The position numbers were made by a program, and so were the translations under genes. A stretch of 64,000 bases of DNA, from contig NW_024704742.1 in the NCBI RefSeq assembly GCF_018977255.1, positions 96,102,001-96,166,000 of the forward strand, read 5' to 3'. The notes under the pieces are model-generated. The model made no database searches. It was not told the origin of the DNA and saw only the letters and a program-made list of their open reading frames with translations. The DNA comes from Callorhinchus milii. Taxonomy: Eukaryota. This document shows, piece after piece, positions 1 to 64,000 of this stretch (position 1 is the stretch's first letter; each line of letters begins with the position of its first letter).

Positions 1-1397
1 GATAGTGCGGGAGGAAGTGGTGGTTGATGAGGAAGTTAGTTTCAGTAGTTTCAGTACCTTCCTGCAGAGGTGAAGGCCTCCTGTTCTTAGCCAGTCGTTG
101 GTTAGAGTCAGTGACTTTGATTCATTAGTCAGAGGTGAGGGAAAGATATAATTCCTTCCTTGGTGCAGTCAATGTGCTGAGGTTCTGAAGCATTCCGAGG
201 CTTGTGATTTCGAGAATGTGATTTCCTTCAGGCATGCCAGTTACCTAAGTTAATAGATCTGGCTTTATTAAGTCAAAGAACAGGGGGAAATGCAATTCCC
301 TTCAGTTAGTATGGCTAGCCCGTTTTTGGTTCTAGTGATTTGTTAATTGGGGATGAGGGAGGCGGAGGTAAAAACACGGTCCAATTAGTGTGGGTAGCAG
401 CTGGGCCGGGGACATCTCAAAGCAGTGAGTGAATGTGTTCAGGTGAGCAGTGAGGGCTCCTTTGCTGTATCAGTTGTCTTTCTATGGGGCAATGTGTGAG
501 CATCCTTCAGATGTTTCAAAGAGCTATAATTTTCAGGTGGGGGAGGGGGTGTGATTAAGGGAATATTAACCTCTTCATTGCTGACAATATACTTGGCTTC
601 CCTGTTAAGATCTTTTAACTACACTCTCTCACAATGCAAACTTTAAATGTGTTGCTAGTAGAAACAGCCTGTTTTAGGCTTTGCTCAGCAAACCAGCAGC
701 GTTTTTGATCATTAGGTCGGTTTGACCCTAAATTCACTCAACCCAAATTAAGTCAACCCTGGGCTGAATTACCAAAGATGCAAGGCCAAAGGCCACAAGA
801 TGATGGAGCTTTGCTTCAGTAACTCACATGATTTTGATTCAAACAGATAATAGTGTTTGCACACCAGACAGTGCTGGGTTAAATGGAACACCCAGTATGT
901 GAAGAAAGGATTACGAGATTCATACGGGTTTACAAACCAAAATACCCCGAATCCCAAGCTGGAAAAGTGTGGCACTTTTTTGATTACATTGGTTTGGGAA
1001 TGGCAATCCATCAACTTACATACCTTGTATGGATCTCAGAATCTGATATTTTGCTTTCTTTGAACGGAAAAGATTAAAACTATTATTAAAGATGCACAAA
1101 CCAAACCAATAATTGCAAAGACTCAATTGTTTACAAATTGGAGATATGCTTCATGTTTTGTAACAGATTCAAAGCAGTAATAATGATACTAAACCTGTTA
1201 TTAAATATTGCATTTTTGTTCCATTACTTCCTGCGCTTAGACAATAAATTGCTATCTTTTTCGATTACTTCAACTGTTTTTATGCCAAACCGGGGAAAAA
1301 AATGGGCCAGGAGGAAAAGCACGACTGCTGATATGACTTTGAAATCCTGTTTGATTTACACTGGGTGTGTTCTGCAAAGTTGACTAATAATGGAAGG

Positions 1398-1807
1398 AAC
1401 AGCACATCATCTAAATGCTAGGGACCTTACAGCCCTTTGGCCTCAATATGAGTTCAACCACTTCAAACCATAAGAATAGTTCCCATCTGCCATAATAGCT
1501 TACCTTCCCCCTCTTCTGTGGCTATTACCACACTATTACCACACGCCTTTTCTCTTTGGTTTGCTCTGCTGCCCTCCTTTGTTTTGCACATTAATACCTC
1601 TTTAACCCATCATACCTCATCCTCCAACCCGTTTTCTTCTTTGTCTTTCTTGCTCCGCCTTCCCTCTCTATTAGTCCTTAAAACCTCTCCCTCCCAACAT
1701 CCCCCAGTTCTGAGGAAGCTTCATAAACCTGAATCATTGACCCACTTTCCTTTCTCTATAGATGCTGTCTGATCTGCTGTGCGTTCCCAGCGATCTTTGT
1801 TTTGTTT
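1398..1807 (+). mobile_element. Penelope-like element 3' end / pseudo-LTR fragment
   Basis: Begins with a decayed GIY-YIG C-terminal coding motif (EQHII..LGTLQPFGLN.EFNHFKP*), then a pyrimidine-rich tract, a hammerhead-like motif and the GATGCTG.CTGA.CTGCTG tail. Flanked by CTAATAATGGAAGG (1384-1397) and CTAATAATGGGAAGG (1808-1822). Confidence 0.8.
1706..1743 (+). ncRNA. degenerate minimal type I hammerhead ribozyme motif
   Basis: AGTT-CTGAGGA-(14 nt)-GAATC-ATT-GAC. The CUGANGA box is intact and the GAAAC box is mutated. Homologous to the better copy at 46443. Confidence 0.5.
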
Positions 1808-3310: not shown

Positions 3311-4231
3311 GTCGGGCAGTTTGTTGGTTTGTCTGTCTCCCCTTTAAACGTCCCAATTTATATTACATTAAGAAGATATGTATTTATATAGCCTCATTAT
3401 CATGTCAAAATTTCAAAGCGTTGTATATGATGATGAGCTGTAGTATTGCACTTTGAAGTTTAATAACTGTTGTTGCATAGGTGAACGCAGCAGCTAACTT
3501 GCAACAGCAAAGTCACAGAAACACTCCATGGATTGCAGCCATTGTGAGGTTAATCACCTATTAAATATGTTCTTTGGTGACAAGATTCTCTACCATTTTG
3601 GTTTGTTTAACATTTTGCATCAGTTTGACCCACTTGGTAGATCCATCCCTCTAGTGCCTTGGGCCCTTGTCCCAAGTGCCTGCTTTTATGATTGCCAAGT
3701 GAATCTGTTAATTCCTTTCCCTAACAGACTGGAGGTAGAGACTGCCCATCTGAGACATTGCTTCCATTGATCCAGCAAAGGAGTATTATCAATCAAGGAC
3801 ATCTGGTTCCATTGTGGGTTTTGTTGATCCTGGCAGTCTGAGGAGAAGCTTTTCTATCTCTATGTCACCTGTTTTCCTGGTGATCTTGGGAGGTTCTACC
3901 TACTAACTTCGTGCTCTTTGTTATTTGACGACACTAAATTCGTATGGGAATCGCAATCTAAATTGTTGCCTAGTCATATATAATTGCAATGAAAACAATT
4001 TTTTTTTTCGTAGTTTACTTTAAAGCTTTCCATGGTGTTGTCAGCCAGTGCCCTGCCAGTAAAGTTCTTCATTCACAAAATAAGAATCTTCATGATGGTG
4101 CATTGTATCCATTTCTTGTATATTTCTCAAGATACTAGATTGCCCCCAACATTGTTGTATTAAGCAATAGAGCAATGACTCCAAGTTACTCAGCCCGGTC
4201 ACAGTTATAAGCCCCTGAATGTCCATAGGAT

Positions 4232-5369
4232 TTGTACGGCTTTTCCTCCAGCCCCCGCACTGTCTCGTGCGGTGTCCCTCAGGGCTCTGTCCTCGGTCCC
4301 CTCCTCTTCACCCTCCATATGCTCCCCCTTGGCGACATCATCCGCAGACATGGGGTTAACTTCCACATGTATGCGGATGACACCCAACTCTACCTTTCCT
4401 CCTCTACCCTCAACTCCACGACCACCGATGTCCTGACAGTCTGCCTGTCCGACATTGAGTCCTGGACGAGAGAAAGCTTTCTTCAGCTCAACGTGCGCAA
4501 AACTGAGGCCCTCCTGATTGGCTCGCGTCAGCACCTCCGCACCTCAGGCGCTGACAGCATCAGCATCCAAGGCTGCACTCTCCACCTCTCAAAGCCAGTC
4601 AGGAACCTCGGCGTTCTGTTCGACCCTGAGCTGTCCTTTCTTCCTCATATCTGCACCACAACTGGCAATGCCTTCCATCACCTCCGGAACATCGCCAGAC
4701 TACGGCACTACCTCACCCCTCACGCTGCTGAAACTCTGGTCCACGCCTTTATCACCTCAAGGCTGGACTATGGGAACTCTCTCCTCGCCGGCCTTCCCGC
4801 CACCTCCCTCCACAAGCTGCAGGTCATTCAGAACTCTGCAGCTCGTGTACTGATCCGCACCAGGCTTCGGGACCACATCACTCCCACCCTCGCTCGCCTC
4901 CACTAGCTCCCCATCCCCCAGAGGATCGAATTCAAGATCCTCATCCTCACCTACAAGGCCATTCACGCCTTGCTCCCTCCTACCTTTCCGACCTACTATA
5001 CCCCTACCTACCTGCCCGTACCCTCCGTTCCTCTGGCTCCAGTCTGCTCCACATCCCCCGCCCCAAACGCCCTACCATCGGTGGCCGGGCCTTCAGCCTC
5101 TCAGCCCCTAGGCTCTGGAACTCCATCCCCCAGTGCCTTCGCCGCCTCCTCCCTTTCCTCCTTCAAGGCCGGTCTCAAGACCTTTCTCTTTGACCGTGCC
5201 TTCAGCTCCCCTCTCGACTCTCTAGCCCCTCCTCGCTCGCTCCCTTCGCTCTCCTCACCCTGACCATTTACCCCCCAAGGCTCGGGTCCTGACCCAAGTG
5301 TCCAGCGCCTTGGGACATCCTCCCAACATGAAAGGCACTCTATAAATGGAATCTTGTTGTTGTTGTTGT
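4232..5369 (+). mobile_element. 5'-truncated L2-clade LINE, relatively young
   Basis: 224-aa open frame with [30 protein letters not shown] and [10 protein letters not shown]. One TAG replaces the W of LHWLP. The 3' UTR ends AAAGGCACTCTATAAATGGAATC(TTG)n. CpGs are largely retained. Confidence 0.95.
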
Positions 5370-8351: not shown

Positions 8352-8710
8352 GTGATTTCATATAGTGCTTTATCACTTCTTTGAGATGTCTCAAAACGCT
8401 TCACAGAATATACTGTAAAGTGCATTGATTGTATATTTTGTGGGCAAAATGCGGCAGCCAATTGTGGACAGCTTCACAAACAGTCGTGAATTGAATGACA
8501 AAATTATTCATCTATTTATTAATTTATTGAAGGGATTATTATCCCAGGAAAAGCAATCCACCACTCGATTAACAACCGGGTTCAGCCCGTATAAACAGAT
8601 GCATGTGGAGTGAGGAGCCTTGCCTAATGTTTCACCCTTCCCGGGAAATGAACCCGGGTCCTCTCGCTTGTGAGGCAAGTACTCTGACCAATATGCTTTA
8701 GGACTCCACA
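8352..8710 (-). mobile_element. tRNA-headed SINE (family A), long-spacer variant
   Basis: The reverse strand starts GTGGAGTCCT.AAGCATATTGGTCAGAG with B box GGTTCATTTCCC, has an extra ~60-bp internal segment, then the Deu-type 3' part and L2 tail. Confidence 0.85.
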
Positions 8711-8959
8711 ATTGATTGAAGAGAAGAGACAGTCCTCTAAGGAGGTTCTGAAGACAGGAAGAGAAGTGCAAAGCAAAGAGATTTAGGGAGAGAGTTCCAG
8801 ACAGCAGTGGCTGAAATCCTAAAACAATGTTCCGTTTTGATGTGACTTAAGTCTTAGGGGTTTGGTTCTTGGTAAATTAGCAAATCCTGGTGAGGGAGAA
8901 CGTTACATATTTCATTGGGACCGTACATTTGCCAAACTTAGGACAAACACTAAAAAGCT

Positions 8960-12497: not shown

Positions 12498-12509
12498 CCT
12501 CCAGATAGG

Positions 12510-12709
12510 GCAGCCAATTACGCACAGCAGTGTCCCACAAACAGTCGTGGATTGAAAATGACCAATTTATTATTGGTTTTGTTTTTGGAGGGATTATTAT
12601 TAGGTGTGTGGAGTAAGGAAACTTGCCCAAAGTTTTGCCCTGCCTGGAATTGAACCCAGGTGTCTCACCTGCAAGGCAAGTGATCTAACCACTGAGCTGC
12701 AGGACTCCA
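12510..12709 (-). mobile_element. SINE family A lacking its 3' tail
   Basis: GAGTAAGGAAACTTGCCCAA..GGAATTGAACCCAGG..CTAACCACTGAGCT..GGACTCCAC. Confidence 0.88.
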
Positions 12710-12875
12710 CGATCCTTAATACAGGATCCTTAATGGGTCCAGAAAAAACAAAAACATGATTTCAGAAACGCAAAGGCAGTAGGATAGGAGGTGATAGGTT
12801 CAGGGTTGTGAAGGGCAAGTTTAGGACAGACATCAGGAAATATTTGTTTACACAGAACTGGAACAGATTACATGC

Positions 12876-13114
12876 GGGGAAAAATTCCACCTGGGCTCAA
12901 ACTTGTTTGATTTATGTATCATTTTAGAGTGTCCAGAATTGGAAACATTTGTTAATACAGCCTTAATTTTGAAGCTGGTTTCCTGTAAGTTGTCTTAAGA
13001 AATACAGAAAAACAGCCTCGAAGCTGAGATCAAATTCAACAATTAGGCAAATTGTGGATGCTCTAAAATGTTAAATAATTTGAGTGAATCTAGACCCAGG
13101 CAGCATTTCTCCCC
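12876..13114. mobile_element. ~240-bp palindromic MITE-like element
   Basis: Termini GGGGAAAAATTCCACCTGGG / CCCAGGCAGCATTTCTCCCC; inner arms CATTTTAGAGTGTCCAGAATT / AATTGTGGATGCTCTAAAATG. A second copy lies at 43777-45311 in the opposite orientation. Confidence 0.75.
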
Positions 13115-13939
13115 ACAAGATGTTTGTTTAATAAAGAGATAGATGGAGCTATGAGTAAACAGTAGAGGCGATATTCTGGGAAAAAATAAGTTCCAACTAG
13201 TCAAAAGCCCCTCTTCATCCAAACTTCTTGTGATCTTGTGTTCCAATGCTTATGGATAAGACCCTTGTGTCTGCGCTTATTCAACCTAGAGGACTCATGT
13301 TTTAAGGTTCCATAGTGACCTGTTGCTAACAAAACAAGATTTAATCTGGAGGATAGTCTCTGATATTATTATTATGGATTCAAGAAGAATAGCACAGTGG
13401 AGGCAGAGGGCTGCTGCCATGTGTAAGTGAAGTTGGATATATTTACTTAGAAAACATAGCTTGTGCAATAAGCTGGTTATGCCGTGTCCTTTCACATTAT
13501 TGGATAAGTGATACTTAAGCTGTATAATGCCAGTAAACAATGCCTTGACAGCAAATATTCTCTTTGAGGTTTCCTAGCCATCTTGTGCATGCAGGTATTA
13601 TGCTAAATACAGTGATACATTGCATATAGGATAATGATTAGGTACTGAGGGATGATAGGGCAGTAACACAATCAAGGGATCAGGTGAAATCGTAAAATGT
13701 GACAGCAAAGGCTGAGCTGCTTGTAGAATTCATCCAAAGGCTGGGATTGTTCCAGTGTTTTCAACCGAAAATGTTATTCGGTTTTATAATGATATAGAAT
13801 TTCAGTTTGTATCTGTGGCAGTGAAGGATCCTAATGAAAGTCGATGTGCAGCACCTCCTCAGATCCATCTCTGTGTGAACATTATTCCTCCCTTGAATGA
13901 CATCAATGCAAATCCACAGGGGGATTTGTACGCTCCTAG

Positions 13940-16660: not shown

Positions 16661-17121
16661 TCCTGGCAGTTGAGTGGTGGAGTTTTTCTCTAGTCTATGA
16701 CAGCTCAGTAGCAGATTATGTGCTTCATCTCTGAAGTAACTAGCTCCATGTAAACCAGACCGTTCACATCTCCCAATTTGTTTGAGATCCTACACCATCT
16801 TTGTAAAGTGCTGTGAGACGTTCTCCTATATGAACGGCAATGGAGATTGTAAGTAGTATTTGCCATTCTTTTTGCAAACATGGCAAATTAGACCCCATTG
16901 CCTCTGGCTGGAGAGGGAAATAACCATTAGAGACCCATCTCCTTTTTGCTGTCTAATCTCCCCCACTTATTGGTCATACGTGTCTGTAAGTGTCAGGTTG
17001 TGCTTGACAATAATACCTTCAATGGTCCGCTGTTCCATTAGCTTTCACTGTCTGTGAGAAAAATGACCACTTAAGTGAGACAGACGAGCCTCTATCACAT
17101 GTAGAGCCAAAATTCAGCATT

Positions 17122-17431
17122 GTGGAGACCTGTAGCTCAGTGGTTAGAGCACCCGTGTCGTAGCAAGAGACCTGTGTTCGATTCCCGTTAGGGTAAAACC
17201 TTGGGCAAGTTTCCTTACTCCACATGTATGATAATAATCCCTCAAGAAAAAAAAATACAATAATAAATTGGTCACTTCAATCTACGACTGTTTGTGGGAC
17301 ACTGCTGTGCGCAATTGGCTGCCGGGTTTCGCCCACAAATATACAGTCAATTCACTTTACAGTATAATCTGTGAAGCACTTTCAGACGTCTAGTGAAAAG
17401 CGTTATATCAAATGCAAGGATTATTATTATT
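17122..17431 (+). mobile_element. SINE family A, full length (~310 bp)
   Basis: GTGGAGACCTGTAGCTCAGTGGTTAGAGC (A box), GTTCGATTCCC (B box), AAACCTTGGGCAAGTTTCCTTACTCCAC, Deu-type 3' part and AAATGCAAGGA(TTA)n. Confidence 0.92.
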
Positions 17432-17620
17432 AATCTCCAAATAACAGAAGAAATATGAAGCGGAAATTAAACTGGAAGTGCGACCGTTAATTCTACAGTT
17501 TAGGAGGCTGGAATACTGCGGCTGGAATACTTTGTTTGGGTGGTAATGGTGGGGGGGGAGGCCGTCAAGAGAGATCAGTGTTGGAACATGGGGCTCTCTC
17601 CTTCTCTGATCACAAGAGGT

Positions 17621-17830
17621 AATATAATAATAATTATCCTTGCATTTGATATAGCGCTTTTCACGTCTTCTAGACGTTCCAAAGCGCTTCACAGAATATA
17701 CTGTAAAGTGAATTGACTGTATATTTGTGGGCGAACGCGGCAGCCAATTGCGCACAGCAATGTCCCACAAACAGTCATGGATTGAAAATGACCAATTTAT
17801 TATTGTTTTGTTTTTTGGAGGGATTATCAT
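17621..17830 (-). mobile_element. SINE family A, 5'-truncated
   Basis: Reverse complement of 17230-17431, forming a tail-to-tail inverted pair about 190 bp away. Confidence 0.9.
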
Positions 17831-18957
17831 GCATGCTAAGATACAAGTCTGTACATTTTACGTTTCAAACTCATGACTTCCTTAATATCGGAAACTGATC
17901 TAAATTGCTGCCTGACTAAACTGGCCATGATTCAGGAGCAGTTGTTGTACACATTGGGATTGGCCTGTAGTGAGTAGGAGGCGATGGCCTTGTTTAGTGA
18001 GTGAGTTAAAGTAATTGTGAGCTCTTTTGAGGCATAGTTATCTTTTCAAACAGTATCTTCTTTGCAAGAATCTTGTAAACACCTTCAGAAATGCGACCTT
18101 TGGCTTAAAATATGTGCAGCTATCTGTCTTTCTCCATTTTCCTTGCTATGGGTCAGTGGTTTCCATGGTAATAAAGCCTGTATTCTGTGTGGATGAATAT
18201 AGGTTACTAAGTAAACTCAAAACCCACAACAGCAGCCCTGTGTGCCATGCATGTGTGTGTACGGAGGTGGAGGGAGAAACATTTGGACATTTGCTCTGTT
18301 TGTGCACACCAGGTTACAAATTCATTGATTTTGTCTAACTGCTATTGTGTCGCATTTGGTAAGTTTTACGTATTTGTCCTTGTATGTTTAGAAAAGGGAA
18401 ATGAAAATTGCAATGTTTCTGAACAGATTCTCAATGTATTATCAAATCTCGTGTCTTCATTCACCATACAAATAACCTGCACTCCCCCATTCCTCCCACC
18501 TTATTTAGGTTCTCACAACATCCATAGAAACTGCTTTGACATGTTATCCTATGTGAAAGATGCAATACATAGGCCAGGCCTGTTATGACTTGTTTTTTTT
18601 GTAGCGTGAATTCAGCTATAACAAGAGTGCCCTGTGGAATTCCACTCCCACAAGTAAATGCACAAAGCAGGAAGTGACATTGCAATGACCTGATGACCCA
18701 ATCATCCCATTTTAGTTTTCCGTTTTTAGTTTTTTGTTTTTTGTTTAGCACAGGGACTAACCAGTGTGCAGGGAGTGAGACAGCCAGCTGTATGCAAGTG
18801 CAGTGAAACCATGGCTCATTAGCATGCACGGTGGGGTTTTATGGATCCCATCCACCGTGTTATAACTAGACTTCACTGTAAGTGCAAGTTGTTGTTATCA
18901 AGAAACATTGTGTTTTCCAGTTGATAAATAAAGAGGACATCTTGGAAGTGTTGCCCC

Positions 18958-19226
18958 CCCACATCTGACTTCAGCACAATGGTCGGGCCTGAGCTGGTCT
19001 GAAGATTCCAGTGCTGCCTTTATTGTCACTAAACCCAATAGTGGCCGCCATGTTGCCGTTTCATTGTCACTTCATGGGATACCATCTTAATTCAGTCTGG
19101 GTTAAGCCAATATCCCATGAAGTGACACTGAAACTCTGCAGTCAGCAACGATAAAACTGGCTTCAAAAAAGGTGACACTGAAATCTTCAAGCAGATTTCA
19201 GGATCAACTGCTGTGCAAAAAGTGGG
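18958..19226. repeat. foldback element with near-perfect central hairpin
   Basis: 19058-19081 and 19111-19134 are reverse complements with one mismatch. Outer arms lie at 18999-19021 and 19168-19189. Confidence 0.8.
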
Positions 19227-19261
19227 AAGGGAGGGGAGTGGAGATCATCACATTGAATCTG

Positions 19262-25437: not shown

Positions 25438-27597
25438 CAACAACAACAACAACAAAATTACATCACATAGCCCTTTCACTTCGGGAGGACGTCCCAAGGC
25501 GTTGGACAGACAGAGTTTCGGACCAGAGCTGTGGGTCGGGGTCGGGGAGGGTGGAGGGCAGGGGGTAAGCAGGGAGATCAAAAGCACAGTCGATGAGGAG
25601 GGGCTTGAAAGAAGCAAGGGAGAGGGCAAGGCAGAGGGACTGTGGGATGGAATTTCAGAGGATGGGGGCAGAGTGACAGAAGGCCTGCCCACCAATAGTG
25701 GGGTGAGCGAGGTGGGGGACGTGAAGCAGGTTGGAGCCCGCTGAGCAGAGGGAGCGAGCAGGATGGTAGAGGGTTAGGAGGTCGCAGAGGTAGGGGGGAA
25801 CAAGACCATGGAGGGCTTTGAAGGTGAGAACCAGGATCTTGAACTGCATCCTCTGTGCAATGGGAAGCCAGTGGAGTCAGGCGAGGATGGGGTGATGGGG
25901 TCACAGGCTGCAGAGAGAACACGGGCTGCAGAGTTCTGGATGATCTGCAGCCTGTGGAGGGAGAAGTTGGGGAGGCCGACAAACAATGAGTTTACATAGT
26001 CAAGCCTTGATGTAATGATGAAACATGTATGAAGATTTCGGCGGCCTGCGGTGTGAGACAGTGGCGGAGCCAGGCGATTTTGCGGAGGTGGGGGAAGGCA
26101 GAGTGGGTCATGGCACAGATGTGGGGTAGAAAGGATAGTTGAGGGTCAAACAAGACACCAAGGTTCCAGACTGGCTTAGCAAGGTGGAGTGTGCAACCGT
26201 GGATGGTGATGTTGTCAGTGCCTGAGGTGTGGAGGCGCTGACGGGAGCCAATCAGGAGAGCCTCGGTCTTGTTGACGTTCAACTGAAGAAAATTACCTCT
26301 CATCTAGGACTTGATGCTTGACAGACATTCTGTCAGCGCAGCAGTCATCCTGGAGTCAAGGGGGGAGGCAGAGAGCTAGAGTTGGGTGGCATCCGCATAC
26401 ATGTGGAAGTTGACCCCATGTCTATGGATGATATCAGCAGGAAGGAGCATATAGATGTTGAAGGGGAGGGGATCAAGGACAGAGCCCTGAGGAATGCTGC
26501 ACGAGATGGTGAAGCCGCTTGAGAAGATGAAATGCAGGCGGTGTGAGAGGTACGATCTGAACCAATCAAGGACAGCGCGTGGAGGTTGAGGTGCAAGGTG
26601 AAGTATTGGATAAGGATAGAATGGTCAACGGTGTTGAAAGCAGCAGAGAGGTCAAGGAGGACGAGGAGGCAGGGGGAGCCCTATTCGCAGATGGACAGAA
26701 TGTCATTTGTCACTTTGATCAGGGCTGTTTCTGTGCCGTGGGTGGCACTGAAGCCCAATTGGAGGGGTTCAAGAAGGGAGTGGGGGGAGAGAAAGGAGTG
26801 AATCTGAGAAGCAACAACTCATTCCAGGACCTTGGAGAGGAAGGGGGGCTGTAAATGGGGCGGTAGTTAGAGAGTAGAGAAGGATCCAGGGAGGGTTTTT
26901 TAAGGGTAGGAATGATGACAGCGATTTTTAAAGGGGTGGGAACAGTACCAGAGATCAGGGAGAGGTTAACGATGTCAGTGATTAGAAGGGCAAAGAGGTG
27001 GAACTCAGAAGTAAGGAAGGGGGGTAGGGGTAGGTTTCATATGGCTTATGGTGGTGATGAGAGAGGAGGGGGAGAACAGGTTCAAAGGTTGGAGGGAAGG
27101 ATGGGTAGGAAGAGGAGATGGGAGGGGGTAGCAGTTGCAGTGGCAGAGGCAGCTGAGCGGATTCCCTTGACTTTGGATTTAAGGAAGTCCAGCATCGCCT
27201 CGCAGTTGGCATTTGAGGTGAGGATGGGTGAAGCGTGAGAGGATGGGCGGAGGAGTCGTTTGTGATGGAGAAAAGGAGCCTGGGGTTGTTCTTAGCCTCC
27301 AAGATTGTCTTGGAGTAGAACAATGATTTAGAGGAGGCGAGGGCAGAATGGTAGGATTTGACATGGTCCTTCCAAATCTGCCGGTGGACAGTTAGGTTTG
27401 ATTTAAGCCAGGTGCGCTCAGTGGAACACGCCTGGGCTTTAAGGAAGCGGAGGTGGCTGGTGTACCAAGGTGATTTGCATGAGTAGGAGACGGTTCGAGA
27501 AGAGAGGGGTAGGGATGTGGATCGGGGAGAAGCAGTTTGTGAAGATGAAGTGGAGGGGATGAGAGAGGTACAATCTGAACCAGTCAAGAACAGAGCC
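25438..27597 (-). mobile_element. 5'-truncated, frameshifted L2 LINE (~2.1 kb)
   Basis: (CAA)n tail at 25438. The reverse strand gives SPWYT..LR.LK, NYRPI, HSTETALIKVTNDIL, LLDLSAAFNTVDH, YADA and NLGVLFD. Same family as 4232-5369. Confidence 0.93.
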
Positions 27598-40849: not shown

Positions 40850-41635
40850 CAACAGCAGCAACTTGCATTTATATACAACAACAGCCTGCATTTATACAGT
40901 GCCCTCCACGCAGGATAGTGTCTCAGAGCTCTAAACAGTGGCGGAGCCTGCCTGCGAGCCAGGGCGGAGAGGGGGAAGGGTGGGGGGAGGTGATCGGAAG
41001 CATGGTCAAAAATGTTTTGGGACTTGAAAAAGAGGAGAGAGGGGACAAGGCAGAGGGATTGACAGAGAGTATTTCAGAGTTTCGGAGCATAGTGGCTGAA
41101 AGTACAACCTCCAATAGTGGAGCCGAGGGTGTGAGGGGTAGGTAGGAGGCTGGTGCCAGTTGAGAGGCACCAGGTGGTGGATTGGGGAGTGAGGAGGTCA
41201 GAGAGCTAGGGAGGTGCCAGGGAGTGAAGGGATTTGAATACAAGTGTGAGAATCTTGAAGTTGATCCATTCGTTGATGGGAGCCAGTGGAGCCTGGCCAG
41301 AACTGGAGAGATGGGGGTATGGAATTTGGTCTGGGTCAGCACGCAGGCAGCAGAGTTCTGAATGAGTTGGATATTTTGAATAGTAGAGCAGAGGAGACTG
41401 GCGAGGAGTGCGTTTGAGTAATCCAGGCAGGAGGTGACAAACGCATGCACGAGAGTTTCGGCTGCATTAGGAGTAAGATACGGTCGGAGGTAGCCAATGT
41501 AATGGAGGTGAAGGAAGGCGGTCCTGGTCAGGGACCGGATGTGGGGGAACGAACGATAACTGGGAGTTGAACCCGATGCCTAGATTGCGCACTAGTTCGA
41601 TGAGTGTGAGGGAGAGCCCAGGGAGGTTAAGCACC
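40850..41635 (-). mobile_element. L2 LINE 3' part, second subfamily
   Basis: HAFVTSCLDYSNALLA..IQLIQNSAA..LARLHWLP. The 3' UTR CAGTGGCGGAGCCTG is shared with 61835-62910. The tail motif TGCATTTATA is duplicated. Confidence 0.9.
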
Positions 41636-41639
41636 TTTC

Positions 41640-42290
41640 ACGTGAGTAGCGGCTCGGAGCTCTTAACAGCAGTGTGGTTTGACACTGAGCTGGAAAGAGA
41701 GGGGATGTGAATGAAGGCAAGCTCAAAGCAGAAAGGTATGATTTGAAAAGGGACAAAGAGGGGACAAGACGGTGGAATTGAGGCAGGGAGTTCCAGAGAT
41801 GTGGGGCACAGTGTCAGAAAATATGCCCACCGATGGTAGAGCAAACAGAATGAAGGCCATGCAGAAGGCCTGAGCCAACTGATCAAAGTTGGTGGGTCGT
41901 GAAATGGGGTTATCAGCAGGTCAGAGAGTTAGACAATGCCAGGGCATAATGTGATTTGAAAGTGAGAGTGAGGATGTTTAAATTCATGTATTTTGCAACA
42001 GGAAGCCATTGGAACCTGGCAAGAACTGAGTGATGGGGTGTGGAGCCTGGTATTAATGAAGTCCAAGTTTTGTTTATTTGGACCTTAGTTTTAGTGAAGC
42101 TGGGGAGATCGGCAAGGAGAGCTTTGGAAAAATCGAGGTGAAAGGTAATGAAAGTAAGGATGAGGGTTTCAGCAGCGTATGATGTAAACAGGGTCAAATG
42201 AGGGGATGCGGTGGAGGTGGAGGAAAGCAGTCGTGGTCAGGAACCAGATGTGGAAGGAGGAAGGAAAACTGGGGAAGGAACCTGATAGCA
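41640..42290 (-). mobile_element. older L2 3' fragment
   Basis: AAETLILTFITFHLDFSKALLADLP..LARFQWLPV..NILTLTFKS. Confidence 0.8.
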
Positions 42291-43776: not shown

Positions 43777-45311
43777 AGGGAGAAATTCCATCTGAGTCCA
43801 GATTTGTTAAATCTGGATTTGTTATGGATTTGTTAAAGGCAAATCATGTCTACCAAACCTGATAGAGTTTTTTGATGAAGTAATGGAGAGGATGGATGAA
43901 GGTAATGCAGTTGATGTAGTTTATATGGATTTTCAAAAGGCGTTTGATAAAGTGCTACGTAAGAGTCTTGTAAACAAAATAGAAGCTCATGGTGTTAAAG
44001 GGACAGTGGCAGCATGGACACAGAACTGGCTGGGAGACGGAAAGCAGAGACTGGTGGTGAACAGTTGTTTTTCTGACTGGAGGGAAGTGTGCAGTATTAT
44101 CCCCCAGAGATCAGTATTGAGACCACTGCTGTTTTTGATCTATATAAATGACCTGGACTTGGGCATAGGGAGTAAAATTTCCTAATTCGCAGATGATACT
44201 AAGCTAGGAAAAGTAGTAAACAGTAAGGGGGATAGTAGCAAACTGCAGGAGAACATAGACTGGTAAAATGGGCAGACATGTGGCAGATGAAGTTTAATGT
44301 GGAGAAATGCAAAGTGATGCATTTTGGGAGGAAGAATGAGGAGAGGCAATATAAACCGATGGTACAATATTAAAAGGGGTGAAGGAACAGAGAGACCGGG
44401 GGGTTCATGTAAGTAAATCTTTGAAGGTGGCAGGACAGGTAGATAAAGCTGTTAAAAAAGCATATGGGATACTAGGCTTTATAAAGAGGGGCATAGAATA
44501 CAAAAGTCAGGAAGTTATGATGAGCCTTTATAAGGTTAGGCCTCAGCTGGAGACTGTGTTCAGTTCTGGGCATCACACTTTAGGAAGGATGTCAAGGCAT
44601 TGGAGAGGGTGCAAAGGAGATTTACCAGGATGGTACCAGGAATGAGGGACTTCAGTTACCATGAGAGGCTAGAGAGGCTAGGATTATTCTCCTTGGAGCA
44701 GAAAAGGTTAAGAGGAGACTTAATAGAAATTTTCAAAATTATGAGGGGATTCAATAGGGTGAACAAGGAAAACCTATTTCCCTGGCGAGTGGGTCAGTAA
44801 CCCGAGGTCACTGATTTAAAATAGTTGTTAAAAAAAACAGAGGGGAGGTGAGGAGAATTCTTTTTACACAGCGAGTTGTTTGGATCTGGAATGCATTGCA
44901 TGAAAGGGTGGTGGAAGCCGATTCGATAACAGCTTTTAAGAGAGAAATGGATAATTATTTGGAAAGGACAAGTTTGCCTGGCTATGGGGAGAGAATGGGG
45001 TAGTGGGATTGAATTCAATAGCTCTTTTCAAAGACCCGGCACAGACACAATGGGCCGAATGGCCTCCTTCTGTGCTGTATAATTCTATGATTCTATGATT
45101 TACATTGTTTTCTTACAATTTCAGAATATGTAAAAGTCAGCAATCTCTTAAATTCAGTCTTAATCCCGAGGCTGGATTGCGGTAGTTCTTAAAAGAATCT
45201 GTAGGAAACTGGCTTCAGAATTAAGACTGAATTTAGGGATTTGCCGATTTTTATGTGTTCTGAAATGCTAAGAAAATAGCTTTGGTCTGGACCCGGTGTA
45301 ATTTCTCCCCC
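43777..45311. mobile_element. palindromic MITE-like element split by a CR1 (pieces 43777-43802 and 45101-45311)
   Basis: Left end GGGAGAAATTCCATCTGAGTCCAGA pairs with right end TCTGGACCCGGTGTAATTTCTCCC. Arms of ~60 bp lie at 45108-45165 and 45219-45276. Confidence 0.8.
43824..45100 (+). mobile_element. 5'-truncated CR1 LINE
   Basis: GFVKGKSCLPNLIEFFDEV..VDVVYMDFQKAFDKV..PQRSVLRPLLFLIYINDL..FADDTKLG..LERVQRRFTRMVPG..RLRGDLIE. Ends with the CR1 hairpin and (ATTCTATG)2. Confidence 0.96.
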
Positions 45312-46165: not shown

Positions 46166-46433
46166 TATTAGTTGCCGGCTGGTTTCCTTCCCTTAGTGCT
46201 AGTGATTATCATTATTTCTTCCAAGCTACATAGACTGTTACAGCACAGAAACAAGTCATTTGGCCCAACTAGTGTGTGCCAGTGTTTTTCTCCACACAAG
46301 TCTTCATTCCTTCTAATCTCCTCTCCAGTAACCTCTATTCCTTTCTCCCTCATGTAGGGTTCAACTACAGTTAGCCAAGCCATAAATAGAATTTTTAAAA
46401 ATGAAGAATTCATCCAACAGTTTATTTTTTAAC

Positions 46434-46542
46434 AAAACAATTCTGACGAAGAGTCGTGGACCTGAAACATTGACTCACTTTCCTTTCTCCATAGATGCTG
46501 CCTGACCTGCTGAGCGTTCCCAGCAGCTTCTGTTATTGTTTT
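46434..46542 (+). mobile_element. ~110-bp Penelope-like terminal unit carrying a hammerhead motif
   Basis: Colinear with 1708-1807. Flanked by AGTTTATTTTTTAAC (46419-46433) and AGCTTATTTTTAAC (46543-46556). Confidence 0.8.
46439..46475 (+). ncRNA. minimal type I hammerhead ribozyme motif (probably decayed)
   Basis: CUGACGA (46443-46449), stem II AG(A)GUC-GUG-GACCU, GAAAC (46464-46468), then AUU and GACU. Confidence 0.6.
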
Positions 46543-46963
46543 AGCTTATTTTTAACTATCTGTTTTGAAATGTTACACTATGGAGCTTGACAAAGTAAGA
46601 GGTAATTAGATGACAGAGCTGTAATACATGACATGCAGTGATCAAAGTGTTAATGACCAACTCAGTTAAATGTGGTGAAAGTGCATGTCACATTGTTGGT
46701 CAGCAGTGTTAGAACTATGTTAAAGGTTCAGCCAGTAGGAGGGGAATAAACTCTCAGGAGCTGAGGGAGGGAAGGCAAACTGGATAGCTAGCTACACAGA
46801 GAGTGCTAAGATAGCAGGAGGTAGGTTTTAATTAGGGCCAGTTTAAGATTAGAAGTCTGCCGAATAAACACTCCCAAAAATTAAGATGAGGGAATCAGGT
46901 ACAAAGGCAGTTGGTTTATGACCAAATGCGGGAAGAACATTATTCCTTTAATTTGTTATTTTT

Positions 46964-47440
46964 CATAGAAATATAGAAGTTGCCGCACTAAAGGAGGCCA
47001 TTTGGCACATCGTGACTACGTCATCATAGCTCCGCACAGGAGCTATCTTCTCAAATCCCATTTCCCTGCTCTTTTCCTTTATCTCTTCATGTATTCAGTC
47101 TTCAAGTTTTTATCTAATTTTAAATATTATAATTGACTTGACTTCAATAGACAGTTATAGTAACACATTCCTAATAACGTTTTGTGTTTTAAAAAAAAAT
47201 CTAATCTTCCCCCGTTATACCAGTAGCAATGATTCTCTATCCATTTCCTCTAGTTGCTGATTGATTGACTAGTGGACATAATCTTTCAAGATTTGCCCTC
47301 TCGATTCTTTTCATAATTTTGAACACCTCTATAAGATCCCCTCTCACTCTCCTTTGCTCCACTGAATATGAAAGTTGAAAGTTTTAAGACTTTCATCTCA
47401 TCCCTGGTATCATCCCAGTGAATCTAGGCTGTATCCTCTG
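46964..47440 (-). mobile_element. old CR1 3' end
   Basis: CATAGAAATATAGAA..GGAGGCCATTTGGC..CATAATTTTGAACACCTCTATAAGATCCCCTCTC, which reads RGDLIEVFKIM on the reverse strand. Confidence 0.8.
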
Positions 47441-49756: not shown

Positions 49757-50249
49757 GATCAAGCATATAATGCTTGATCATGCCATTGAGATATTGCAAA
49801 GCGCTTCGCAAAATTATTTCTGTGAAGTGTAGTAACTGTGTATTTTGTAGGCAAATGAGGCCGTCAATTTGCACACAGTAATGTCCCAGAAACAGAAAAG
49901 TGCCAATGACTGAATCATGGTGGATTACATGGAGAATGGGGAAACGCATATTGAGGAGGCCATCAGAAGAGAAAGCCTGGACTATGGATGCCATATAGGA
50001 CACTTGAACTGCTCAATACATTGAGGGTTTGTCATAGATACTGTGGTGGAGATAAAGATTTTAAAAAATCATTAAATGGTACAACTGACACTTATTTCCA
50101 TCAGGGCTGTGTACCATCAGGTATAAACATATTTGTTTGTTTGGGGCAAATTTACAGTATTCCTTAAGGTGTTCCTTGTGTTAATTACCTTAAGAAATGC
50201 TTTCATTTTTGGGGGGTCAGCAAGGGTCTGAAACATGTGGAACCTGTTG

Positions 50250-50553
50250 CTGTAGCTCAGTGGTTAGAGCACTCGCTTTGCAAGTGAGAGACCTGAGTTC
50301 AATTCCAGGCAGGGTGAAACCTTGGGCAAGTTTCCTTACTCCACACGCCTAATAATAATCCCTCCAAAAAAAAAATAATAAATTGGTCATTTTTAATCCA
50401 TGACTGTTTGTGGGACATTGCTGTGCGCAATTGGCTGCCGCGTTTGCCCACAAATATAGAGTCAATTCACTTTACAGTATATTCTGTGAAGCGCTTTGGA
50501 ACGTCTAGAAGACGTGAAAAGCGCTATATCAAATGCAAGGATTATTATTATTA
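50250..50553 (+). mobile_element. young SINE family A nested in an RTE/RTEX-like 3' end (50205-50625, -)
   Basis: CTGTAGCTCAGTGGTTAGAGC..(TTA)n. The host sequence TCTGAAACATG|AAACCCATCACCAT resumes after the tail. Confidence 0.92.
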
Positions 50554-50955
50554 TAAACCCATCACCATTCCTAAGAGTATCCAAACCAAACTGAAAATCT
50601 ACCTACAAATAGAAGATTCTATGGAATATCACAAGTTTGTTACTGTTTCTTAATAGGTTCAACCTTATTATTTAAGGAATTACCTGTACTCAACACACTG
50701 GTCCCAGCCTACAACGCCTGCAGTCAGCTGGCTATTTGCCAGTGGTCTTTGCTACCAAGATCTTGGCCGACACTAGCAAACTCACCGTTTAAGGTCAATT
50801 TCCTGGCTTTTCTTTACCAGTAAACCAGCAGCTGACCGGGAGCAGCTACAAGCGAGCAATCAGCACATTGATCACAGACTAGTTCTTTATTAACAAGGAT
50901 GGAGCTAATTAGGAAATGGTAACAAATTTGCAGAATAGCAAACAGTTTATAATTA

Positions 50956-51232
50956 TAAATAATCCTTTTGACATAGCGTTTTTCACTTTTCTAGATGTCT
51001 CAAAGCGCTTCACAGAATATATTGTAAAGTGAATTGACTGTATACTGTGTGGGCGAAATGCAGCAGCCAATTGTGTATAGCGGGTGTCCCATGAACAGCC
51101 GTGGATTGAGTGACCAAATAAATTATTATTTTTTTAAGTAAGGAATCTTGGCCAAGGTTTTGCCCTGGCGGGAATCGAACCCAGGTGTCTTGCTTGCGAG
51201 GCAAGGTCTCTAACCACTGAGCTACCACTCCA
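50956..51232 (-). mobile_element. SINE family A
   Basis: TCTCAAAGCGCTTCACAG..GGAATCGAACCCAGG..CTAACCACTGAGCTAC. Confidence 0.88.
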
Positions 51233-52520
51233 GTTTACCCCTATATTGCATGATGCACTCACAGAAACCCTATATATACCAAAATATATATAGGCTGAAA
51301 GTTGAGATGTGCCTTATGTGATTTGAATCAAAATTTATTAATTGAATCTTGCATATAATTATATGGAATGCTGATAGTAATAATCTTACATTTGATATAG
51401 TGCCTTTCATGTCGGCAGGACATCCCAAAGCACTTCGCTGGATATACTGTATTATACAGTGTGTTTTGTGGGCAAATGAGTGGGGCACAGAAACTGATTA
51501 TTCATGCCAGCTAGTCTGTGCCAGTGTTTATACTCCACACGGCCCCCACCCTTCCTGTTCTCTCCTATATTCCTCTATTCCCACCTCATTCACGAATGTG
51601 TCAAGTTTCCTCTTAAATATGTAATGAGTTGAATCTGTTAAGAAATGTTAAACATTTTAGGCAAGCTCTGTGCATTGATGAAAACATTGTCTTTAAAGGA
51701 TGTCCATATGCAAATTTGAATCATCTAATTCAGACGATTTTTCTTTTCCCCTTAAAAAATTCAAAATGTATCCATTCAATGCTGTGTACATTTGAATGAA
51801 TTAGTGCTACAGCCTATAATACAAATTTGACACATTAATCGTTCGAATTTTGTTTCTGCTACAGGCTTTAAACAGGGTTTTTTGTTTTAGAGATAACTCT
51901 GACATTGACTTTGATGGAAATAGGTCTGTTTGAATCACAATGAAGCAACCACTGATTGTCAGCACATTAACTCAGCCGATAATCCCCACGTCCTCCTCAC
52001 ATTCCATCCTGGATTCCATCTCCCATTCACAGCCTGTTCCAGTCCTTGATTAACTGTGTAGCCATTCCTAGTTTTATTTCCCGTTGACAACTGGCCTTTC
52101 CTCAAGATTTTATCTCTGGTCTATTCAGAGCTGAAGATGGAAGGGGGAGGGGATGGGGGGAGGTTGATGCAATATATGATCTATTTTCAGGTTTTATAAA
52201 ATAGAAACTATGACCCCTGAAACACTCTTACAGAAACAATGAGGGTGAACACTTCACCGTGCACTCCCCCCCACCGCCCCCCACCCTAATAAAAATGATA
52301 CTTTACTAGCATCTTGCACATTGTAAACTTCACTTTCTCTGTGGAAACCTCTCTCAGTCAGACCAATTGGTGAGACTTCAGTTCTGATCCAAGATCTCAT
52401 CGCAGCCAAGGTCTTATCAGTCAGCGTGATGTACTGGGGAATTCCGCTGAAAACAGGCTTCATATCACAAGGTACTTTACGCAATGGGAAGCCTTCAGTA
52501 ATCTGGCAGTTTTATAATAT

Positions 52521-52836
52521 AAATAATAATAATAATCCTTGCATTTGATATAGTGCTTTTCATGTCTTCTAGACGTCTCAAAGCACTTCACAGAATAGAC
52601 TGAAAAGTGAATTGACTGCATTTTTTGTGGGCGAAATATGGCAGCCAATTGCGCACAGCAGTGTCCTACAAACAGTCGTGGTTTGAAGTGACCAATTTAT
52701 TGTTGTTTTTTTTGAGGGATTATTATCAAGCATGTGGAGTAAGGAAATTTGCCCAAGGTTTCACCCTGCTGGGAATTGAACCCATGTCTCTCGCATGCAA
52801 ATCGAATATTCTAACCACTGAGCTACAGGATTTCAC
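52521..52836 (-). mobile_element. SINE family A, full length (a partial copy follows at 52958-53097)
   Basis: Reverse complement of 17122-17431. Confidence 0.92.
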
Positions 52837-53869
52837 ATTGGAGCATTTTTTAACTCCCATTGTCTTGCCACCTTCCATCTCCTTTTCCTACCTGTTTGAG
52901 GCTACTCAGAGCCATTCAGAAAAAGTGTTCCACAAAACATATTGTGCAGCTGGAGATTATAATAAATAATAATCCTTGCATTTGATGTAGCACCTTATCA
53001 TGTCTTTGAGACGTTTCAAAGTGCTTCACAGAATACACTGTAAAGTGAATTAACTGTATATTTTTGTGGGTGAAACATGGCAGTCAATTGTGCACATTAT
53101 ACCTGGCCAGAGACATGCTGCGGGTGTTTCTGTGAAGACGTCTGTCAATGTCCAATGTGGCATGGGCGCTAGTGTTGATACACCTCATCTCACTGGATTT
53201 CACAACTTTTCTCAAATGTTAAAATTCCATCTACTCAGCTTCCAAAGTATTAAACTAAATTGAGCTGCTCAGATGTTCTGATCTGTTAAAATTCCTGCTC
53301 ACATTCATCTTACAGTTCACAATTTCAATCTACTGTTACTGTTAAACCAGGAGATGGCACAATGGGCCATTCTGTGCTATTTTTATTTAGTACAGAAATT
53401 TGTAAAATACATTACATCAGTGTTCAGCTTGAAAGCTTGCTTACAATGAGATTCTGCCAAAGGACAGAATGCACATAAAAACATCATTCTTCAAATTAAT
53501 TGGTCATTCACTTCATGATTGTCCGTGGACTTGTTGGTGCAGAATAGTTGCTGCACTTGCCTACAAAAATCAGTCACTACACTTTACAGTAATCCCTAGT
53601 GAAGCATTTTAAATCTGATAATCTCACAATTGACTAATAAGGGATGTAAATATAACATTGTCTGGAACAATTGTCTAGAGCAAAATTGGAACATTGTTTG
53701 GAACAAAAACATGTAAGATTCAGTTCACAGGACTCTTAAAGAAATAGTATAAGTGGATAAAGCCATAATTCTTGCATTTGCTACATCGGATGATGTCTTC
53801 AAGCATTTCACACACTAAAGAGTGTAGTGTCTATGTACATGTTGGCAAACACAGTCATATTTTGTCTCA

Positions 53870-61500: not shown

Positions 61501-61834
61501 TGGTGAAGCAGGCTTAAATAGCCTACTTCTCTTCTTATGTTTTTGAAACATTCAATGAGTTTTACGTGCATGGAGAACTTTAAAGTACTGTGAAGTAGGA
61601 TTGTGACCAATAGTAAAGCTTTGCATCTGAAATGAAACATTTTCTCTGTTAAAGGGGTAAATGTATATGTAAAATTGTTTGTGAAATTATTATTACTTAC
61701 TGCCTAAAGACTTGCTGCAACAGCAAAATTCACATCCCAACACATCATTGCAAAACAAAATTGCGTTTCTATTGTTTGGATACGATATTATGAGGACAAC
61801 ATTATTGTGCACCTATTCTGGAATTACAGCTTTA

Positions 61835-62910
61835 CAACAACAACAAATTCCACTTATATAGCACCCTACACGCAGGGTAGAATCTCAGAGCGCTTCACAG
61901 TGGCGGAGCCTGACTCTGAGCCATGGCGGGGGAGATGGCCATAAGCACAGTCGAAGAGGAAGGTTTTCAGGTGGGACTTGAAAAAGGGGAGAGGGAGCAA
62001 GGCAGAGGAATTGAGGAAGAGTGTTCCAGAGTTTTGGGAGCAGTGGCTGAAAGCGCACCTCCGATGGTGGGGCGGTGGGTGCGAGGGATGAGCAGGAGAC
62101 TGGTGTCAGTCGAGCTGAGGCGCCGGGAGGTGGATTGGGGAGTGAGGAGGTCGGAGAGGTAGGGAGGTGCCAGAGAGTGAATGGATTTGAACACGAGTGT
62201 AAGGATCTTGAAGTTGATCCGTTCAGTGATGGGGAGCCAGTGGAGGCTGGCCAGAACTGGTGTGAGATGTGAGATATGGAATTTGGTCCAGGTAAGTATT
62301 CAGTCGGCAGAGTTTTGAATGAACTGGAACTTTTAAATGGTGGAGTTGGGGAGACTGGCAAAGAGTGCCTTTGAGTAATCCATGGAGGAGGTAACAAACG
62401 CATGTACAAGGGTTTTGGCTGCATTTGCGGTAAGGTACGGTCGGATGCGGGCAATGTGGCAGAGGTGGAAGAAGGCGGTCCTGGTCAGGGACAGAATGTG
62501 TGGAAGGAAGGACAGCTGGGAGTCGAACCGGACCCCTAGATTGTGCACTGGTTTGGTGAGACTGAGGGAGAGCCCAGGGAGGTTGTGGAGTTTAGATCCA
62601 TAGGAGTGAAGGCGTTCACGGAAGCCAAGGAGTATGGCTTCCGTCTTGTCCATATTCAGCTGCAGGATGCTTACACTCATCGAGGCCTTGATGTCTGCCA
62701 GATAAGCTGATATAACATTGGTGGACCTGGAGTTGGTACTGGAGGAAGCAAAGTAGATTTGTGTGTCATCCGTATATGTGTGGAAGTTTACCCCGTGTCT
62801 GCGAATGACATCTCCTAGAGGGAGCTTATCGATAAGGAAAAGTAGAGTGCCAAGGATGGAGCCCCGGGATACCCCGCAGGTGACTGTGCAGGAGTGGGAG
62901 GAGAAACTAT
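61835..62910 (-). mobile_element. 5'-truncated L2 LINE, second subfamily
   Basis: (CAA)n tail. The reverse strand reads TVTCGVSRGSILG.LLFL, FHTYTDDTQIY, VHNLGVRFDSQLSF and HAFVTSSMDYS. Confidence 0.92.
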
Positions 62911-64000
62911 TTGCTGAGATGAAACGGAGGTGGTATCACCAACAGAGATAAGACCTTGTGAATAGAATGAAGGTAAATTTTTCTATGGGAAGAACATTAC
63001 CTCTCTTTGCCGTCTCTGGAGCTCAGACCACATTGTCATCATTTCTTTAGAAAAATAAATAATGTGCTGGTCCATTAATACACGCAGATGGAGGAGACAA
63101 TTTCAGGTGAGCGTATCCTGCTGCTACGTCTTGGGGTAGTTGGCTTATGACTGAGCCTCTCTTTCGCATTCCCAATGTGCGACTTGAACCTAGTGCCCAT
63201 TCTCGCTCTGTGAGGTTATTGTGCACAGGTGCGTACGGTTGATGCAAAAATATGCCCAAATTGGGGGCAGCTCTTGGCTGCCTTCATATAATTTCAAGCC
63301 ATGCATTTTGGTACTGAGACAAGATTCATTCATTCAAGAATTAAAGGTAAAAACATTAACAATTAACATCAATGTGTCTACCATGCAAATACTTTATGTT
63401 ATTGCCACCCACTAAATAACAATCAATGGCAGACGTTTTAGTTTTTATCAAAAGAGAACACATTGTATCCTTTTTTATTTCCACCTATGGTTTTTTTCTC
63501 AACCATATGGCTCGAAACCCACTGAGATGAATGTTTCCCTCTAATGTAGTCATTTATTAATTGAGCCAGAAGGTTCCCCCACTCATTTAGCTTTTGCTTT
63601 GAATAGATTCCAAAAACAATCATTTTAATACCTTGCTGGCCAGTGGGTTTCAGCAGCTGACAGAGCAAAAGCGTATGGAGCAGTGAGTGTTTGTGCAGGT
63701 GGTGGCTTTAACCTTCACTATGCCCTGAATGGGTAAATTCTATTCCGACTGCGGTTCTGCTTATAATTACAGTTTCCTTTTTATGTTTCATTTATCCTCT
63801 GAGATCAGACGTATTTCTAAACACAACCATCCAGAGAGGCAGCGGCAATAAAAGAAGTTTTATGCTGTGCTTTATATCACGAGATTCTACCATAATAACT
63901 TTTGAAACCTCAGTATTTTAAATGCATACTTTTAGATATATTATGTAACACAAAACAAGCTGTCATCCTCAATTCTTCAGACTATAAGAGCAATAATGCT

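Follow-up and report, generated by a model that had tools for sequence, protein, structure and literature searches.

Near position 46,400 of the analysed window, a stretch of 64,000 nucleotides from Callorhinchus milii, a short insert with a hammerhead-ribozyme-like motif lies between two direct repeats. It raises the question of what kind of element left it there. The original prediction described a stand-alone unit of about 110 bp with its own target-site duplication, representing either an extreme 5'-truncated Penelope insertion or a retrozyme-like mini-element family.

The insert occupies 46434-46542 (109 bp) and is bordered by imperfect direct repeats of 15 and 14 nt (Table 1). The 14-15-bp repeat proposed at first was recovered, and the 9 nt counted from the left repeat to the ribozyme core agree with the predicted start about 9 nt upstream of CUGACGA. 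Homology to a second copy in the window begins at 46438. The repeat is AT-rich, and its score was equalled or beaten at 123 of 9,115 window positions with the same geometry, in 1,707 of 19,187 AT-matched pairs and in 504 of 10,000 shuffles. Being borderline against these nulls, the repeat is suggestive of a target-site duplication. The locus holds a single unit, and none of the six tandem repeats reported for the window lies there.

The motif is a minimal type I hammerhead at 46439-46475, with no helix III. Stem I pairs at three of four positions (46439-46442 with 46472-46475). The GAAAC noticed earlier is present at 46464-46468, and the palindrome site at 46467-46470 reads ACAU, where most of the family has ACGU. 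From hammerhead numbering, the cut would fall after 46471. The 5-bp stem II with one bulge that had been proposed can be drawn at 46450-46463, but this register is a product of damage: T stands at 46463, where 59-79% of the family depth is C, and in the family a G-C pair closes the stem after one unpaired A. With both strands of the window scanned, a hammerhead-like descriptor matched no site but this one, and it matched at least once in 14 of 300 dinucleotide-shuffled windows. The Rfam models, suggested as a check, returned 17 matches up to E = 10 in the whole window and seven in 46400-46580 (181 bases), none of them to a hammerhead family. When the hammerhead fold was forced, its energy was +3.6 kcal/mol versus -7.8 kcal/mol for a competing hairpin, and RNA folds were no better than those of shuffles (z = -1.26 for the unit, and -1.71 and -0.49 for the others). 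The ribozyme of this copy is probably dead, because the palindrome is lost, one pair is lost in each of stems I and II, and the hammerhead fold is unfavourable. The lone damaged copy most likely does nothing.

Table 1. Coordinates of the unit near 46.4 kb, its hammerhead motif and its sister copy in the window.
Feature	Position	Strand	Remark
Sister copy: left direct repeat, 14 nt	1384-1397	+	score 12
Sister copy: degraded C-terminal codons of a probable PLE ORF (GIY-YIG end with spacing as in Neptune)	1397-1473	+	compared by eye with Fig. S2, one part of PMC8557442
Sister copy: pyrimidine-rich 3' region, 231 nt	1474-1704	+	74% C+T
Sister copy: ribozyme and 3' end	1705-1807	+	GAAU for GAAA; stem II decayed
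Sister copy: right direct repeat, 15 nt	1808-1822	+
Unit: left direct repeat, 15 nt, putative target-site duplication	46419-46433	+	alignment score 10
Unit: four A at the 5' junction, matching neither repeat nor family	46434-46437	+	presumably untemplated or flank-derived
Unit: Penelope-like 3'-terminal piece, ribozyme and ~70 nt, without optional tail	46438-46542	+	84% to 1705-1807
Unit: stem I, 5' strand	46439-46442	+	A at 46440, versus G in sister copy and family, breaks one of four pairs
Unit: core box CUGANGA	46443-46449	+	intact (CUGACGA)
Unit: unpaired A and stem II with 3-nt loop	46450-46463	+	in the family register four of five positions pair (one G-U, one mismatch)
Unit: core box GAAA, palindrome site and U17	46464-46471	+	GAAA 46464-46467; palindrome site 46467-46470; U17 at 46471
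Unit: stem I, 3' strand	46472-46475	+
Unit: right direct repeat, 14 nt	46543-46556	+	versus left repeat, one mismatch and one gap

BLAST and nhmmer recovered one other copy in the window, about 410 bp in length (1398-1807). Only a short tail had been thought to be shared with 1745-1807, but the whole unit including the ribozyme is shared: the sister segment 1705-1807 aligns with 88 identities, 14 mismatches and three gaps. The two copies have the same 3' end, and their 5' ends differ by about 300 bp, the sister copy running further upstream. The palindrome is lost in both. The direct-repeat score of the sister copy is borderline, being reached by 187 of 3,000 random 28-mers and four of 72 blocks, and its left repeat ends exactly at the start of an ORF-end motif. 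The last 30 nt of the pyrimidine-rich region equal, by eye, the loose-end consensus of sequencing run X7 at 46441 (see below) in 25 of 30 letters. A pyrimidine-rich partial match at 47217-47265 (E = 0.019) was considered as a third copy and not counted.

The ORF remnant of the sister copy contains an in-frame stop at 1412-1414, a frame change near 1448 and a terminal stop at 1471-1473. The codons from 1397 fit E-x6-L-x-T-x2-P-x-GLN, a pattern defined post hoc over about 17 residues, which has a single match in the six frames and none in 300 shuffles. In Fig. S2 of PMC8557442, the part of that source used here, this spacing characterizes the GIY-YIG ends of Neptune and Naiad, and Penelope/Poseidon, Nematis and Hydra elements differ. 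Searches with the ORF-end peptide returned no Pfam family, no phmmer representative, no PDB chain and no homologue-search candidate; the peptide is too short for these blanks to weigh much. As judged from the residue pattern, the ORF end is probably the end of a Neptune-type Penelope endonuclease, with the ribozyme 236 nt behind it. Neptune is a likelier parent than Naiad, because Naiads have an N-terminal endonuclease and lack canonical ribozymes (PMC8557442, in part).

Several other repeats and features were recognized in the window. At 26 bp from the right repeat of the sister copy, a SNORD28-like match lies at 1848-1916 on the minus strand (36.1 bits, where the Rfam gathering score is 50; E = 0.02). 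The region of the 3' box is missing from the alignment, and the match is perhaps a decayed copy. An abundant dispersed repeat with tRNA-like heads, which we take to be tRNA-derived SINEs, was found through five Rfam tRNA matches and self-BLAST at 17109-17432, 50250-50553, 52524-52849, 12505-12720, 50950-51236 and 8355-8715, with many shorter pieces. Some of its copies form inverted pairs (17231-17830, 50241-51236). Decayed LINE pieces lie at 4229-5369, 25440-26527, 40868-42286, 61831-62935 and 43811-44182, the last with a Pfam RVT_1 match (E = 1.1e-8); L2 and CR1 are possible labels on our assumption. Self-BLAST also revealed self-complementary fold-back segments with 63-73% identity at 12862-13128, 18955-19236 and 45108-45276, which are possibly old palindromic elements.

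Public sequencing contigs from four of 24 runs were aligned to 46300-46720 at 80% likeness. Run X1, from the same species, contributed 7,326 contigs, and run X17, with the same species label and presumed to be RNA, contributed 2,564; two other species contributed 15,297 and 14,556. These are contig counts and not copy numbers, and contigs break at repeats. Contig depth is high over the unit only. The unit is a member of a very large family in three species, not a stand-alone element. The original description therefore stood for the 109-bp insert and its 15- and 14-nt repeats, with the duplication suggestive against the nulls, but not for its independence, since the family continues upstream of the ribozyme. 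Two X1 contigs cross the junctions, left at 46300-46470 and right at 46496-46720, and agree there with the window letter for letter, so the insertion is real in X1, possibly the very sample from which the window derives. The alignments of the four runs revealed no empty site; of these runs X1 alone covers the flanks (X17, X6 and X7 do not).

At 46469, G accounts for 75, 81, 61 and 63% of depth in the four runs, and at 46463, C accounts for 71, 79, 59 and 64%. The suggestion that ACAU is a CpG-decayed ACGU was borne out by the G majority in all four runs, with the partner base changed from C to T in 10-12%. Over both sites the CpG partner bases are decayed in 7-13%, and G12 is replaced by A in 7-13% of depth; the core variants of the family are of the CpG type, as in neutral decay. 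At 46441 the last letter of the loose-end consensus is G, which restores the fourth pair of stem I, and the X7 consensus at 46479 contains a perfect 5-bp stem II after the unpaired A. Upstream of 46441, the loose-end consensus matches the sister copy, and the family thus continues past the ribozyme. Agreement among the loose ends there is 0.40-0.41 over 30 nt, and by a rough mixture estimate some 18-27% of contigs clipped at 46441 run on into upstream family sequence. Beyond 46541, a conserved extension of at least 30 nt (agreement 0.47-0.51) is present in only part of the contigs, and the 30-nt extension is absent from both window copies. Loose ends at 46459 in X1 and X17 belong to a subfamily with a different stem II in the species of the window, in which the upstream consensus is A-rich just before stem I. 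The fall of depth toward the 5' end was rejected as a measure of truncation, because it is confounded by the private mutations of the unit and by short contigs.

Joints within contigs mostly connect opposite strands (14 of the 15 joints listed, 28 in all) in head-to-head geometry, and the contigs behind them are mostly from the two other species. In 13 of the 14 inverted joints listed (38 of 39 contigs), an arm terminates at 46438-46449. The gap between the two ends is at least 32 nt in every joint listed, which is likely a technical floor. A match between the starts of the inverted partners (46470 or later) and the cleavage site was considered and rejected, because the gap is at least 32 nt in all 14. 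At least six go-back joints were listed across the runs. Among the joints listed for X17 there is no go-back joint, and contigs cannot reveal circles. One X1 contig, with a joint from 46514 to 46474, carries a head-to-tail second unit whose inserted letters hold another hammerhead-like core; it is a rare short tandem of the family. Viral, metagenome and genome contig collections were scanned with a 21-22-nt tail piece. No locus was found in viral contigs and no family member in the collections scanned; six metagenome loci and one genome locus matching the tail piece were dropped as chance, because all seven are GC-rich (60-67%) with unrelated flanks.

By the family-level features compared, the unit can be assigned to the class of minimal hammerheads (min-HHRs) of metazoan Penelope-like elements (PLEs), and the Penelope-type minimal type I hammerhead proposed at the outset was confirmed by the intact core boxes together with the palindrome, G-C closing pair and extra base of the family. 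The comparison draws on the portion covered of Cervera & De la Pena (2014, PMC4209133). Min-HHRs are found there scattered as single motifs that number in the thousands (about 4,000 in coelacanth and 9,000 in Xenopus) and are ascribed to truncated PLEs, and single minimal motifs did not cleave in vitro; no cartilaginous fish is named in that portion. The type I topology, the absence of helix III, the short stem I and the core boxes with NUH are common to both. The extra unpaired base after position 9 and the G10.1-C11.1 pair are present in the family, with G-U in the unit, and the palindrome at about 15.1-16.2 is present in the family and lost in both window copies. Since the extra base, the G-C closing pair and the palindrome are min-HHR traits in that source, these family traits count as evidence for a PLE. 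Stem II has 5 bp in the family versus 7-8 bp in Schistosoma, and the unit is decayed.

Neptune-clade PLE insertions share with this family, as far as the parts of the literature used here go, strong 5' truncation, head-to-head partners, an optional tail, a ribozyme near the 3' end and, as putative features here, short target-site duplications. Head-to-head inverted partners are a common PLE arrangement (Arkhipova et al. 2013, PMC3846280; Craig et al. 2021, PMC8557442, both in part), and an optional tail of 30-40 bp is described for PLE insertions (PMC8557442). The position of the ORF end before the stop codon and the ribozyme fits Neptune only, not Naiad. The putative duplications are 14-15 bp here, whereas those of rotifer PLEs are 8-10 bp (same source). 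For the anole Poseidon element PAc, the portion covered of Frangieh et al. (2024, PMC11167929) reports AT-rich targets, reverse transcription that starts internally downstream of the uncleaved ribozyme, and two internal start sites that explain the optional tail. The PAc ribozyme requires protein for cleavage, and it is dispensable for insertion in vitro. Measured from the start of stem II, reverse transcription starts at 111-118 nt in PAc, whereas it would start here at 92 nt without the tail and at about 120 nt or more with it. PAc belongs to a different clade, and its ORF starts inside the ribozyme.

The defining marks of non-LTR retrozymes are circular RNA and tandemly arranged units that each carry a complete ribozyme; most of these ribozymes are canonical (Cervera & De la Pena 2020, PMC7229834, in part). 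The unit has in common with animal non-LTR retrozymes, as described there, that it is non-coding, with a type I hammerhead, low GC and long putative duplications. It differs in being a single decayed min-HHR whose 410-bp sister copy is tied to an ORF-like end: the locus lacks two or more tandem units with a complete ribozyme each, and the sister copy speaks against a defined unit length and the lack of a coding link. The PLE-end and retrozyme readings would nevertheless be close kin, because a preprint, considered here in part, derives retrozymes and solo monomers from PLE ends (pLTR); it surveyed one chondrichthyan genome (Li, Clavereau & Pollet 2026, bioRxiv 10.64898/2026.07.22.740005). Its supplements may list the family. 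The literature covered contains no description of this family in cartilaginous fish; repeat libraries (Repbase, Dfam) and most subscription papers lie outside that scope, so this is not evidence of novelty.

Taken together, it is very likely that an endonuclease-bearing PLE, probably a Neptune-type one, gave rise to the unit as an old retro-copy of its 3' end with extreme 5' truncation. This reading, the first of the two originally offered, is favoured because the sister copy, with its 3' end at the same point, reaches further in the 5' direction and includes what resembles the end of an endonuclease ORF. The retrozyme-like mini-element family was not supported, since the family continues upstream of the ribozyme, a single monomer is present at the locus, and the ribozyme is minimal and not canonical. 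The endonuclease of the element, as for the anole PLE, would nick AT-rich DNA, and reverse transcription would begin internally on the PLE RNA, some 90 nt past the first position of stem II. Synthesis would halt after about 105 nt, just past the ribozyme, and leave a duplication of 14-15 bp, as the flanking repeats suggest. The copy would then decay through CpG loss in the palindrome and in stem II and the break of a stem I pair, changes which are seen against the family. Going by the literature, cleavage of the tandem transcript by the minimal hammerhead of the parent element would require a dimer or the PLE protein. What is observed is the decay and a common 3' end combined with 5' ends that vary; nicking, priming and clade would follow from analogy with published elements. 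No reverse transcriptase or full-length parent was recovered, and the clade assignment rests on about 17 residues. The number of 5' ends near the ribozyme, which by the rough 18-27% estimate may exceed what random truncation gives, argues against simple truncation.

As an alternative, the PLE protein would amplify in trans an RNA of some 110-140 nt whose 5' end is fixed shortly before stem I, which would make the unit a copy of a separate non-autonomous mini-PLE, comparable to a SINE or to a "solo retrozyme monomer". This is unlikely, although the low loose-end agreement upstream of 46441, the A-rich X1 consensus a few bases before stem I, the arm ends clustered at 46438-46449 and the go-back joints, one of them in X1 with a second core, all fit it, and pLTR-derived retrozyme monomers have been described (in the part used of bioRxiv 10.64898/2026.07.22.740005). 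The other window copy is longer and reaches the ORF-like end, however, and no tandem array exists at the locus. The 5'-end hints themselves are weak, because 46441 is where the unit departs from the family, which by itself makes clipping accumulate at that point; agreement would also be lowered by several subfamilies that differ upstream, and the joint gaps of at least 32 nt suggest a technical floor. For the same reasons a somewhat broader proposition is doubtful: that most insertions in this fish lineage have their 5' boundary fixed by the ribozyme itself, either through a SINE-like ribozyme-plus-tail RNA of about 110-140 nt parasitic on a Neptune element or through stalling or fold-back of reverse transcription at the cDNA of stem I.

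The two remaining readings concern the motif and not the element. That the unit cleaves a host transcript as a functional or co-opted ribozyme is highly improbable: both core boxes are intact, unlike those of the sister copy, but the dimer palindrome is gone, stem I keeps three of four pairs, the forced fold is unfavourable, the unit folds no better than shuffles, and the single min-HHRs of PMC4209133 (portion covered) did not cleave in vitro. Moreover, Pfam detected no host exon in the 150 of 238 non-repeat frames scanned. It is scarcely credible that an unrelated repeat, such as a SINE or LINE tail, came to resemble a hammerhead by chance. The blank Rfam result and the descriptor matches in shuffled windows would agree with chance, but chance would not make the family majority restore the palindrome, the closing pair of stem II and the fourth pair of stem I, and the motif occupies the usual place of a PLE ribozyme, behind an endonuclease-like ORF end.

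The unit by itself matters little: it adds one decayed copy to a motif and an element class on record since 2014. Taken together, the copies of the family form a large natural sample for the study of PLE integration, with its internal start sites, optional tail, fold-backs and long duplications. If its 5' ends are anchored at the ribozyme, this would bear on what PLE hammerheads do, because cleavage is dispensable for insertion in vitro (PMC11167929, in part). If the ribozyme does set the 5' boundary, tens of thousands of mini-insertions of near-identical length would record a poorly understood step of PLE integration, and the PLE hammerhead would have a role besides cleavage.
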